A stretch of 64,000 nt of DNA from a virus: positions 1 through 64,000 of IMG/VR virus record IMGVR_UViG_3300020180_000015. One strand, 5' to 3'. Below are positions 11,621 to 24,907 of the stretch, one piece after another (positions within the stretch are counted from its first letter, which is position 1; the number at the start of each line of letters is the position of its first letter). The translations under genes and the position numbers were made by a program. The notes beneath the pieces are model-generated. The model did not search any database. It had not been told where the DNA came from and worked only from the letters and a program-made list of their open reading frames with translations.

Positions 11621-12751
11621 TTAGCGGTTTACCGCCATCGGCATAATGACGGCAGTGTAATCGTTCTGTCCTTCCTGTCGAACGACCAGCGGATGCGCCG
11701 CGCCGTTCGTCTCAAGAATGACCCGCTCCGTGCCGAGTACCTCAATGGCATCCATCAGGTACGCCGATCCGTATTTGGCGTACAGTTCCTCTCCTTCGAC
11801 TGCCGCATCCATCGTGCTTTCGCAGTCGCCGCGTTCGGCGGACACACCACGCACCAGTATATCGCCCGGATGGGTTGGGTTGGCTGGGGGGGATACGGTG
11901 ATGAGTACTGCACCGTTGGAATCCCGCCCGAAGATCGCCGCACGCTTCGTAACCGCTAGCAGGTCGGCGACATAAACTGTCGCCCGTGTTGACCACGATG
12001 TCGGGAAAATCGCGTCAAGGTCGGGGAATTTGCCGGACAAAAGTTGGGAGCGGATCAGCGTCGATCCGAAGGAGAACGATGCATAATCCCGCGTCAGATG
12101 AATGGTCACCTCCGCGTCAAAGCACAGCCGTGCAGTTTGCGCGAGTGCGGGTCCCGGAATGATAAAGTCGTCGCCGTCTTTGAGGACGTGTTCAGTTCCT
12201 GCCCCAAAGACGCGAATGGCGGCGCGGTATCCGTCCGCCGAAAGCCAACGAAGCTGACCATTTTTCATCTGGATACAAAGTCCGGTCAGGATGGGGCGCG
12301 ACTCCTCGCGGGAAACCGAATACATCACCTGATCGACAGCTTGTTTGAAGTCCTTCCCGCTCATCTTGAGCGACCATTCATCTGTTGCGTCGAGCAGCGG
12401 CGGAAACTCTGATGCGGCGATCCCTTTCAGATTCGATGTACTCGCGCCACAGCGCAGGTTCACAGTTTGCGTTGGGGCGTCTAAGGTCAGATCGATACGA
12501 TCTGGAGGGAAATTGTTTATCAGTTCCTGCAGCGTTTTCGCTGGCAGGGTGATCGCGCCGGGACGATCTACCTTCGCGCCGATGTAGGTGGTGATGCTCA
12601 TCTCGATAGTGGTAGCGGCGATCTTCAAACGCGCATCCTCTGTTTGAATGAGGATGTTCGCCAAGATGGGCAGCGTGGGACGGTTCAAAACTGCCTTGAT
12701 GACGGTGGTAATGGCGCGTTGCAGTTGATCTTGTAGGACTGATACTCGCAT
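11621..12751 (-). CDS. dnaN: DNA polymerase III beta sliding clamp
   Basis: 376 aa; RPTLPILANILI, SREESRPILTG, ADGYR, GKFPD, C-terminal VIMPM. Confidence 0.95.
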   Translation of the reverse strand: MRVSVLQDQLQRAITTVIKAVLNRPTLPILANILIQTEDARLKIAATTIEMSITTYIGAKVDRPGAITLPAKTLQELINNFPPDRIDLTLDAPTQTVNLRCGASTSNLKGIAASEFPPLLDATDEWSLKMSGKDFKQAVDQVMYSVSREESRPILTGLCIQMKNGQLRWLSADGYRAAIRVFGAGTEHVLKDGDDFIIPGPALAQTARLCFDAEVTIHLTRDYASFSFGSTLIRSQLLSGKFPDLDAIFPTSWSTRATVYVADLLAVTKRAAIFGRDSNGAVLITVSPPANPTHPGDILVRGVSAERGDCESTMDAAVEGEELYAKYGSAYLMDAIEVLGTERVILETNGAAHPLVVRQEGQNDYTAVIMPMAVNR

Positions 12752-12857
12752 CGTGTTCTCCGTGAATTTAGCCCGTTGTCGGACGGGTGCGGATTATGTG
12801 CCGCAAAGGGTGAAATTGACGCAACGGCGGCGTCTGCCAACGCCGCCGTTGGGGTTT

Positions 12858-13760
12858 CTAATAAAGTGTTTCGCCGCGCACGACCTCGGTGATCATGTCA
12901 ACGATTGCAGCCGCCAAGCGATCCGCCGGAGTCTCGCTGGGGAGACCAAGGATCGCTCCCGAATTGCGGGCGACCTCCGTTTCACAGCGGGCATTCTCAG
13001 TCGCCCATGCATTTTCGACCTGATCGATGGCGTCCGCGATTTTGGCGCGGATCTCGATCCAGTCCCCGTCGATCTCGTGCGATTGCGCCACGATGCAAAC
13101 GGGCATTGACCCCGATCTCCAAAATGCCGAAGCAAGTCGCTTCGGCGCTGGCTTCCAAACGAGGAGTCTAAACCACCAGCAGTTGCGATCAAAGTTGAGC
13201 GGTTTCCCTTCGGTGAAATCCAGATCGGTCGAGCTTGATGTTTTCCGCGCGATGGCAAGGTAGATGCCGCTCGGACTCACCCACTCATTCTCCGATAACG
13301 GATCGATCCCAAAACCCAGCACCCTGCTCAACACCCGCCCAAGGATCGCTCCTTCGTCGGCGTTCTTCTCAGCAGCGGCACGTTCTTCGGCGGCGTTCTC
13401 GTCGGCTTCAATCCTGCGTTTGACTGCCTGTGCGTCGCGGATCGCCTTTTGCCATGCGGCACTTGCGCCGTTCACGCATTCAAAGTTCAGCATGGGTCCC
13501 GCCGTGTACAGTAGCTGATCTATCAGTCCCATCACGTCACCTACGAATATCACCGTCTGATCTGAAAACTTGATTTCGTAATTGTCGTTACCTTGGGTAT
13601 AGCGCCAGATCGCATCCGGCGTCAGCAAAAATCTTTCGAGAGTGGCGCGTGTAAAATAGGCAAACCCATCATCGCCGAGTTGCCCATCGATAACTGCGTC
13701 TCTGTTGAACTCCAACGGCAGTTTGAACTGCGCGGGAGTAAGTTTTGTTGTGATCATCAC
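12858..13760 (-). CDS. Hypothetical protein
   Basis: 300-aa ORF downstream of promoter 13790-13818. Confidence 0.75.
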   Translation of the reverse strand: MMITTKLTPAQFKLPLEFNRDAVIDGQLGDDGFAYFTRATLERFLLTPDAIWRYTQGNDNYEIKFSDQTVIFVGDVMGLIDQLLYTAGPMLNFECVNGASAAWQKAIRDAQAVKRRIEADENAAEERAAAEKNADEGAILGRVLSRVLGFGIDPLSENEWVSPSGIYLAIARKTSSSTDLDFTEGKPLNFDRNCWWFRLLVWKPAPKRLASAFWRSGSMPVCIVAQSHEIDGDWIEIRAKIADAIDQVENAWATENARCETEVARNSGAILGLPSETPADRLAAAIVDMITEVVRGETLY

Positions 13761-23277: not shown

Positions 23278-24110
23278 CGTGCCTCCATGCTGAATAGTGG
23301 CAAATCGGATACATCGTCGTCTCCCGCCACGATGTGCGGATCGAACGGCAGCCGAAGGCGCTCCTGCCCGATCAACACATATGGCAGCGACGTATCCCCG
23401 CAGATGAACTCGCGTTTGGCGCTACGTGCTGCAACTGCTGTTGTGCCGCTGCCGCAGCACGGATCGAACACAAGATCACCCTCGCTCGTGTACGTGCGGA
23501 TTAGATACTCGAATAGCGCGACGGGCTTCTGCGTCGGATGTAATCCGCGTTCGCACGCAAACTCTACGACGCTGCTCGGCACACGGTTATCTGGATCACC
23601 GTGCCTCATATGGGTTTCGGCAGCACCGCCGTAGACCTCGCGCTTTTTAGCGTAGGGATTAACGGCGTATCGACTCCGCGATGCTCCCGACTCGGTTCGC
23701 TTCTTGGGCTGCGGGAAATAGTGCAATGTCCCCTTTCCAAACACGCAAACATCCTCATGCTCTTTCATCGGGACATAATCGGTGTTCAGGAAATTCGATC
23801 CCATGTTTTTCACCCAGACCCACGAATAACGAAACCAGTCCAAGTTGCTCATGACAAGTGCCGCTGTGAAGGGCTGACTCGCCGTCAATACAATCGCGCA
23901 ATTCGGTTTAATCACCCGCGAAAATGCCGACCACATCAGGTCAAATGGGATCACCGTGTCCCACGAACACGCTGTTGTACCGTAGGGCAAATCGCAGAGG
24001 ATCATGTCCACGGACTCCGGCGGCAGACTGTTGGCAAGTTCGAGTGCGTCGGCGCACACGATCTGGTTGAGAGGCATATTCGACAAATTGTCGATTTTGG
24101 CATCCATCAC
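23274..24110 (-). CDS. Beta-class amino DNA methyltransferase
   Basis: CDLPYGTT, HPTQKP, DPCCGSGTT; C-terminal RLRLPFD...DLPLF. Confidence 0.9.
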   Translation of the reverse strand: MMDAKIDNLSNMPLNQIVCADALELANSLPPESVDMILCDLPYGTTACSWDTVIPFDLMWSAFSRVIKPNCAIVLTASQPFTAALVMSNLDWFRYSWVWVKNMGSNFLNTDYVPMKEHEDVCVFGKGTLHYFPQPKKRTESGASRSRYAVNPYAKKREVYGGAAETHMRHGDPDNRVPSSVVEFACERGLHPTQKPVALFEYLIRTYTSEGDLVFDPCCGSGTTAVAARSAKREFICGDTSLPYVLIGQERLRLPFDPHIVAGDDDVSDLPLFSMEAR

Positions 24111-24907
24111 TTCACCCCCGCGAACATCGAGATCGTGGAGTCGGTTCGCGCTTTGTGCAGTGAGACCCCGGTTAATCGCTGGTTTGTCTGCGCGACGGCA
24201 TCGGCATCCACGTCCCCGCCGATGTATCTACGTCCTAGTTCTTTCGCTGCATACAGTGTTGTGCCGCTACCCGCAAATGGATCGCACACAAACCCGCCAT
24301 CGTCGCTGCTGGCTTTGATCAGCATCTGCAGTAGTCGGATCGGCTTCTCATACGGATGTACGAGTTGAGTCGGATGCACCTTCTGCAGACGAACAATGTC
24401 CGGCAGGCGATTCCCGCGCAGCAAATGTCGCCCCTTGGATGAAAACACGATCATCTCGTGCTGCGGAGCGTAGCTGCCCTGTAAATCACCACTGCCGTGC
24501 TGTCCTTTGTCCCAAACCAACCAATTTTTCACGTCAAAACCAGCGGCGCGAATATGCCGCGTCCAGATGTCGATATTGACCCACTTGCAGAATACGTACA
24601 GCGCCCCACCCTCTTTGAGTGCGGCATACGCCGGGCGTATCCATGTCGCATCGATCTGACTTGCGCCGACGATCTCGCGGAATTTCTCCTCGCGGTCGTT
24701 ATGCTGGCTCACCTGAGTACCGACTCCATACGGGGGATCAGTGACAATCAGGTCGAGCGTGGCGGTACCGATCAGTTCAATCAGGCTCGTCGCGTCGTTG
24801 TGATGCACCGTATCATGCAGCGCGGACAGCGGCGGCGAGGCGCACCAGTCTGTATCCGAAGGAATGCCGAGTGAAGTGATCGGCAAACTGCCGCCCCAAT
24901 CAGACAT
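24107..24907 (-). CDS. Beta-class N6-adenine DNA methyltransferase
   Basis: TDPPY, HPYEKP, DPFAGSGTT; C-terminal TISMF. Confidence 0.9.
   Translation of the reverse strand: MSDWGGSLPITSLGIPSDTDWCASPPLSALHDTVHHNDATSLIELIGTATLDLIVTDPPYGVGTQVSQHNDREEKFREIVGASQIDATWIRPAYAALKEGGALYVFCKWVNIDIWTRHIRAAGFDVKNWLVWDKGQHGSGDLQGSYAPQHEMIVFSSKGRHLLRGNRLPDIVRLQKVHPTQLVHPYEKPIRLLQMLIKASSDDGGFVCDPFAGSGTTLYAAKELGRRYIGGDVDADAVAQTNQRLTGVSLHKARTDSTISMFAGVK

Follow-up and report, generated by a model that had tools for sequence, protein, structure and literature searches.

Putative sliding-clamp-binding tails on the early DNA methyltransferases of a virus that encodes its own DnaN

The virus record IMGVR_UViG_3300020180_000015 is 83,551 bases long, with an estimated completeness of 97%, and the window analysed here is its first 64 kb. 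In this study we focused on the early/replication arm of the genome, which encodes a beta sliding clamp (DnaN) and five amino-methyltransferases (MTases), referred to here as MTase-A to MTase-E, whose C-terminal tails carry short hydrophobic motifs. It is suggested that these tails, and that of a neighbouring ASCH-like protein, are probably clamp-binding peptides. An initial annotation had reported the clamp, the five tails and the end of the neighbour. DnaN is borne out by its three Pfam domains, and on recomputation every motif coordinate proved exact. The genes on which the argument turns are listed below, with family assignments by Pfam.

11621..12751, minus strand: beta sliding clamp DnaN, 376 residues; PF00712, PF02767 and PF02768, all above cut-off.
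13823..15289, minus strand: MTase-A, PF01555 amino-MTase of 488 residues with a Cys-rich insert, end ...KEQMSLF-stop; EQMSLF at 13826-13843.
15286..16104, minus strand: ASCH-like protein of 272 residues (coordinates recomputed), end ...MQLSLKLEALA; QLSLKL at 15301-15318.
20292..21140, minus strand: MTase-B, PF01555 amino-MTase of 282 residues, tail ...RLRMPFDPHPIEADSDLPDLPMFQFIQAQE; DLPMF at 20316-20330.
21140..22495, minus strand: C5 cytosine MTase (PF00145) without a tail motif, end ...TYKEEST.
22492..23277, minus strand: MTase-C, PF01555 amino-MTase of 261 residues, tail ...RLRMPFDTRSMFMSDYVGDLPMFRAVEEST; DLPMF at 22516-22530.
23274..24110, minus strand: MTase-D, PF01555 amino-MTase of 278 residues, tail ...RLRLPFDPHIVAGDDDVSDLPLFSMEAR; DLPLF at 23292-23306.
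24107..24907, minus strand: MTase-E, PF01555 amino-MTase of 266 residues, tail ...KARTDSTISMFAGVK; TISMF at 24122-24136.
36998..38293, plus strand: late-region PF01555 MTase with an N-terminal extension of 213 residues, end ...LSDMGLSPRRGE, without a tail motif.

The 83.5-kb genome encodes seven DNA MTases in all, six of the PF01555 family and the one C5 enzyme. Membership of the beta class (PF01555) was judged by a (D/S)PPY motif IV near the N-terminus, an FxGxG motif I near the C-terminus and a Pfam score above cut-off. The five early enzymes are N6/N4 amino-MTases on these grounds: they score 81-153 bits (cut-off 26.7), motif I reads GSGTT in all of them, and motif IV reads SPPY, SPPY, DPPY, DLPY and DPPY. 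The DLPY form, at residues 40-43 of MTase-D in place of the usual DPPY, is near-invariant across the MTase-D subfamily (D40, P42 and Y43 in the alignment). MTase-A has an insert of about 150 residues (residues ~255-415) between its PF01555 halves, with several Cys pairs (C257/C261/C264, C294/C297, C322/C327/C330 and C408/C410/C412), and this insert probably forms one or two zinc-binding modules.

The PF01555 domain stops about 25-30 residues ahead of the C-terminus in each early MTase, and all 12 of the 12 solved relatives align with MTase-D no further than residue ~252-259; the motifs therefore sit on tails beyond the known fold. They lie 0-7 residues from the C-terminus, the Phe being trailed by 4-7 more residues in four of the five enzymes. 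In the AlphaFold2 (AF2) model of MTase-D the predicted local distance difference test score (pLDDT) falls from 86 at RLRLPFDPHI to 74 and then 59 through the acidic linker and the motif. The late MTase, which has no tail, serves as an internal negative control. It had been described in the initial annotation as a ParB-MTase that, like the C5 enzyme, lacks the motif; the motif is indeed absent from both, but a ParB domain was not confirmed by Pfam at E<=0.01. The same split between tailed early and untailed late enzymes recurs in a related viral contig (L081), whose ortholog of the late MTase is also tail-less.

It had further been proposed that the cores of these MTases are divergent while their tails converge. 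The first part holds for MTase-B, -C and -D, whose cores are 29-33% identical. The second does not, as the tails of these three can be aligned over about 25 residues (RLR[ML]PFD[PT], some 10 residues, then DLP[ML]F), which indicates common descent with the gene and not convergence; only MTase-A and MTase-E carry independent variants. TISMF of MTase-E is the weakest motif of the five and a marginal fit to the clamp-binding class.

The motif is not spread at random through the proteins of this virus. A strict, literature-type clamp-binding pattern, which was not shaped by sequences of this window, matched solely at the C-termini named above among 81 proteins (19,422 residues), and a scan of the last 25 residues of the window's proteins returned the five early MTases and the 272-residue protein only. 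When the MTases of phage loci were compared with the other proteins of the same loci, 11/103 and 5/1613, respectively, had the strict pattern within their final 15 residues. This result (odds ratio 38) held when the window was excluded, and the p-value of 7e-11 overstates the case, as do all such values here, since the enrichment statistics count related sequences as independent.

Relatives of the MTases were gathered irrespective of their tails. Among relatives of MTase-D whose tail is no shorter than 5 residues, [LMI]F was found in 76 of 169 (about 45%), against 22 +/- 4 in shuffled tails (maximum 38 in 2000 shuffles). Gln stands at position -4 in 30% of these tails (background 6%), Leu is the commonest residue and enriched at -3, and Pro, Thr or Ser occupies -2. 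A separate, independent set of 149 diverse MTase-A relatives gave [LMI]F in 85/140 tails (shuffles 19 +/- 4) and the strict pattern in 34/140 (shuffle mean 1.3, maximum 6). Could such ends nevertheless be functionless, short and hydrophobic by chance? The motif has just 4-5 residues, and TISMF alone would be unremarkable. The shuffle and cross-protein controls, the exclusivity within the window and the conservation in orthologs nonetheless effectively refute this explanation, to which we attach next to no probability. In spite of the kinship among the sequences, an effect this large and variants this diverse make a chance origin untenable, and the motif is not peculiar to this phage.

Across the MTase family QLSLF, QLDLF, QLGLF and QLSLL swap with DLPLF, DLPMF and TLPMF at one post-catalytic position, and the linkers ahead of the motif vary from 0 to about 40 residues. 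The MTase-D subfamily keeps RLRLPFE, 12 residues and D[VL]S[DG]LPLF, and in DLPLF-type tails conservation collapses right after the Phe. Two relatives carry a Trp form of the motif (QLSLWGE and DLPLWAGL).

The 272-residue neighbour of MTase-A had no Pfam match, and its ASCH label is a lead from a protein atlas only. Its QLSLKL fits the hexapeptide class of clamp motifs, QLxLxL. Two homologs end PLQMSFLVAV and PLQMSYLVAV, compared with PMQLSLKLEALA here, and the linkers ahead of the motif have diverged. Otherwise the search for this family returned only a near-identical 2.7-kb metagenome fragment, and none was found in viral contigs. The AF2 model of the protein has a mean pLDDT of 35.

Chromosomal DnaN proteins of Aggregatilineales/Anaerolineae share about 50-55% identity with the clamp itself, which suggests a host among the Chloroflexota. 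The phage dnaN gene lies 1-13 kb from those of the tailed MTases. Positions of the peptide cleft are kept in the phage protein (R152, L155, G174, R176, P243 and M370-P371-M372), and the three domains together with these positions point to a clamp with an intact peptide pocket that would be available to the tailed MTases. Alone among 40 related clamps, it has A177 (Leu/Met in the others), F249 (Ile/Val) and G328 (Asn). We take residue 177 to be the subsite-I Leu177 and residue 328 the subsite-II Asn320 of the Escherichia coli clamp, and the mapping of the pocket is likewise assumed. These three substitutions hint at an altered peptide preference of the phage clamp. Four Aggregatilineales/Anaerolineae genomes, which stand for the presumed host lineage, encode a Pol IV whose little finger is followed by QQLGLWE, QQLSLWE, KQLGLWE or AQLELWG.

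Several lines of comparison argue that the tails belong to the class of beta-clamp-binding peptides, as the initial annotation had proposed, and depict a motif that is specific, conserved and portable. The family consensus [Q/D]-L-[S/P/T]-[L/M]-F matches the bacterial clamp-binding consensus QL[S/D]LF, reportedly that of Dalrymple et al. 2001. The presumed host lineage has QLxLW in its Pol IV, and two MTase relatives share the Trp form. The homologs of the 272-residue protein keep the motif despite their diverged linkers, conservation in the MTase tails ends at the Phe, and AF2 confidence declines along the tail of MTase-D. The enrichment over controls and the synteny with dnaN described below point the same way. 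The known clients of the bacterial beta clamp (Pol II, Pol IV, Pol V, MutS, MutL and Hda, with QL[S/D]LF or QLxLxL) likewise carry a short hydrophobic peptide near the C-terminus and outside the catalytic fold. In Caulobacter crescentus, replacing residues 849-DLPLF-853 of MutS by AAAAA abolishes its co-localisation with the DnaN-marked replisome (PMC8034640). This DLPLF is identical to the motif of MTase-D, and DLPMF is one residue off. The same source gives the MutS clamp motifs of E. coli and Bacillus subtilis as QMSLL and QLSFF, and the QMSLF of MTase-A differs from the former by one residue (PMC8034640). What sets the present case apart is that the carriers are DNA MTases and an ASCH-like protein and that their binding to DnaN is a prediction. 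Neither kind of protein was on any list of clamp clients found in the literature search.

We therefore consider it probable, if well short of certain, that the tails of the five early MTases and of the ASCH-like protein are beta-clamp-binding motifs which couple early methylation to replication. In such a mechanism the hydrophobic peptide, on its tether behind the final helix of the catalytic core, would most likely occupy the hydrophobic groove that domains II and III of a DnaN protomer form between them; the protomer could belong to the phage or to the host. With clamps staying behind on DNA that has just been made, the MTases would be enriched on new phage DNA that still lacks methylation, and methylation would thereby be coupled to replication. 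Physical clamp binding, the choice of clamp, a kinetic link with the fork and protection against host restriction are what we infer from the sequences. Several MTases may also share one clamp at the same time, as a toolbelt, and act before the host restriction enzymes do.

Several points weigh against this interpretation, apart from the kinship that inflates the p-values. The looser motif patterns were partly shaped by observations in this phage. At position 1, three of the five motifs, as counted here, have D or T where the usual Gln is absent, and TISMF is a weak match. Of six cultured-phage relatives of MTase-D sampled (from Vibrio VH-8, Pseudomonas HU1, Escherichia OzMSK, Salmonella S102, Stenotrophomonas CUB19 and Brucella Tb), the motif was found in one, Brucella Tb, with ...NSLNMFAGQ, which resembles TISMF. 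The tail is absent from roughly half of the MTase family and is thus dispensable for MTase function. The linker is semi-conserved, its length being exactly 12 residues in 19 of the 26 DLPLF-subfamily members, and the AF2 tail of MTase-D is not fully disordered (pLDDT 59-86), so that it may have a structural role.

The last two points lead to a different explanation, unconnected with the clamp: the tail would serve the MTase itself, in a structural or regulatory capacity, by packing against the core or another protomer or by blocking the active site until it is released. The RLRLPFE/D element that directly follows the last helix is conserved and has a pLDDT of about 86, and the remainder, at 59-74, does not drop below 50. 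The permutation of the beta class would put the C-terminus beside the N-terminus, making back-packing geometrically easy, and many PF01555 MTases are dimeric, which would offer a second protomer. We nevertheless regard this explanation as improbable. The same motif is found on a D12-class (PF02086) MTase beside dnaN in L081, and on the ASCH-like protein, which is not an MTase. In the wider family the linkers are anything from 0 to about 40 residues long, QLSLF-type and DLPLF-type ends replace each other, and the half without tails is functional. The enrichment of Gln at -4 fits the clamp consensus and not a need for packing.

It might also be supposed that the tail docks on a hub other than the clamp, as a mimic of the C-terminal tip of the single-stranded DNA-binding protein (SSB), or that it is a degron or adaptor tag for turnover of the MTase. 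The tip of SSB consists of acidic residues followed by I-P-F-COOH and requires the free terminal carboxylate. An acidic run does precede the hydrophobic end in GDDDVSDLPLF and EADSDLPDLPMF, much as in SSB, and Phe is the last residue in 15 of 76 relatives, which makes this its commonest single position relative to the C-terminus. Here, however, the Phe is trailed by 4-7 residues in four of the five MTases. Gln at -4, Leu at -3 and the literal QLSLF variants fit the clamp consensus and not the SSB tip, and DLPLF is a motif with demonstrated clamp-dependent localisation. Docking on another hub is thus quite improbable, marginally more so than a structural role.

If the tails do bind a clamp, it may be asked which one. 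MTase tails adjoin dnaN in several other phages. The clamp of L081 is 51% identical to that of the present phage and retains the host-type residues at positions 177, 249 and 328. In that contig the order is a D12-class (PF02086) MTase ending ...RTLPMFANLTINEEST, dnaN and a PF01555 MTase ending ...YTLPMFADNFA, and 3 kb upstream there is another PF01555 MTase, with the end ...VQLSLFGGAS; a T4-type RNA ligase (PF09511) at 7369-8451 lies between the tailed MTases and dnaN. The tail on the D12-class enzyme gives the strongest indication of a portable peptide module. Two MTases ending ...HEPLFH... come after dnaN in a second viral locus (L080). The helicase/methylase gp78 of Arthrobacter phage AbbyDaisy, encoded two genes ahead of dnaN (gp80), ends ...QDMPSLFDLEDLADAS (also given as ...KQDMPSLFDLEDLADAS), and in Microcystis phage Mae-JY04 dnaN is followed by an MTase ending ...ARQIDLFGAVA. 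Also among the cases in favour of a link are the adenine MTase of Synechococcus S-H1 (...DQVSLSLLDDL) and a D12 MTase of a Thermus phage (...RLGRLF). In sum, tailed MTases stand immediately beside dnaN in L081, L080, a third viral locus (L087), AbbyDaisy and Mae-JY04, the hosts of which are very different.

Co-occurrence of tailed MTases and dnaN is seen in several unrelated phages in which the genes adjoin, but it fails as a rule: among 80 viral loci encoding MTase-D relatives, dnaN was within 10 kb in only 2. Strict co-occurrence was accordingly rejected. With dnaN so rarely near, most tailed MTases must use the host clamp, if any, and the host clamp probably suffices for them; the link to phage dnaN looks suggestive and not obligatory. 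Special dependence on the phage's own DnaN, as first proposed, is doubtful.

A stronger form of this argument holds that the tails target the host clamp only, and that the phage dnaN serves replication by recruiting the host Pol III, its proximity to the MTases being incidental. This is compatible with clamp docking as the best explanation, and opposes only the version with a dedicated phage clamp. The rarity of dnaN at the 80 loci, though 76 of 169 tailed relatives carry the motif, speaks for it, as do Ralstonia phage Dimitile and a Mycobacterium prophage, which have dnaN and no MTase nearby. MTases are also common in phage replication modules anyway. The tailed MTases that directly flank dnaN in the five phages named above argue the other way, and the three substitutions unique to the phage clamp, which fall on pocket positions or beside them, hint at a tuned specificity. 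We regard exclusive use of the host clamp as a serious possibility whose chances are nevertheless somewhat below even. At the opposite extreme, the phage clamp could be a private platform, its pocket remodelled (L177A, I249F, N328G) so as to favour phage D-L-P-[LM]-F and QMSLF clients over those of the host. This would provide dedicated methylation of replicating DNA by up to 5 MTases of different specificity together with the ASCH-like protein, free of competition at the host clamp. On the residues compared here we judge this elaboration to be rather unlikely.

If clamp docking is accepted as the preferred reading, the docking system is an already known one, and what would be new is DNA MTases as a class of client. 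Our full-text literature search, with subscription journals outside it, found no DNA MTase of a bacterium or phage described as carrying a beta-clamp motif. A parallel in logic is eukaryotic DNMT1, recruited by PCNA through its PCNA-interacting peptide (PIP) box (reviewed in PMC9690074): a DNA MTase would in both cases be tethered to the replication clamp for prompt methylation of new DNA. The two differ in that PCNA is a trimer and DnaN a dimer, and in that a PIP box is present there and none here. The tailed enzymes here are PF01555 amino-MTases and the C5 MTase is the tail-less one; the purpose there is epigenetic maintenance and here would be viral self-protection. The phage system does not belong to the DNMT1-type class and may work like it by analogy, not by homology.

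Other proteins of mobile elements and phages, not polymerases, attach to sliding clamps by short peptides and are similar in this respect. They include the transposases of insertion sequences (IS), which bind the beta clamp (PMC3971601, PMC4549789), and gp33 and gp55 as clients of T4 gp45 and MuC of Mu (PMC9690074; bioRxiv 10.1101/2025.01.04.631326). These are transposases or transcription factors, however, and there is no DNA-modification enzyme among them. The plasmid MTases M.BceJIII and M.EcoGIX are mobile-element MTases tied to replication. Their activity depends on ongoing replication, and those who described them suspect that a host factor acts as the intermediary, with the sliding clamp among the things they mention (PMC7736820). 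Unlike the enzymes described here, they are single-strand-specific and tied to Pol I-dependent replication, and no clamp motif is described for them (PMC7736820).

The arm starts at about 24.9 kb and is transcribed leftward as far as about 9.7 kb. The order is MTase-E, MTase-D, MTase-C, C5 MTase, MTase-B, dUTPase, a helix-turn-helix protein, a 373-residue protein and DnaB, followed by a 162-residue protein, the 272-residue protein, MTase-A, a 300-residue protein, DnaN and a ResIII/DEAD helicase. No DNA polymerase was seen among the proteins of the 64-kb window. In a megablast search the whole arm matched no cultured phage, and related-locus searches with MTase-A alone or MTase-E alone returned one distant locus apiece. 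The MTase genes overlap stop-to-start at TGATG junctions with GAGGAG just before, and they therefore form one translationally coupled block. The C5 MTase (21140-21160) and MTase-C (22492-22512) share an ...EEST-stop end whose codons read GAGGAGTCCAC[CT]TGATG, that is, the ribosome-binding site and the overlapping stop/start of the next gene; the D12 MTase of L081 (9105-10001) has the same type of end, ...NEEST. Since these codons double as ribosome-binding site and stop/start, the gene ends are constrained by translational coupling. Outside the arm, a 76-residue protein (26022-26252) starts MDEQQSLFGF, with a clamp-motif-like QQSLF at its N-terminus, and its gene is directly upstream of that for an actin-like segregation ATPase (26255-27328; PF17989 ALP_N and MreB-like_C). 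It may be an adaptor of a phage partition system with a clamp-type peptide.

The proposal can be tested directly with peptides and purified clamps, and in the culturable phages AbbyDaisy or Mae-JY04. If the tails bind the clamp, the DNA MTases of phages and prophages would make up a large group of beta-clamp clients that has so far gone unlisted, and DNMT1-PCNA coupling would have a counterpart in bacteria and phages. This would explain how phage DNA could be fully methylated at several types of site in the short gap between its synthesis and its exposure to host restriction, and would help to account for phages that have dnaN but lack a polymerase. In metagenomes, a C-terminal [QD]L[SP][LM]F would then be a simple marker by which replication-coupled orphan MTases might be separated from others.

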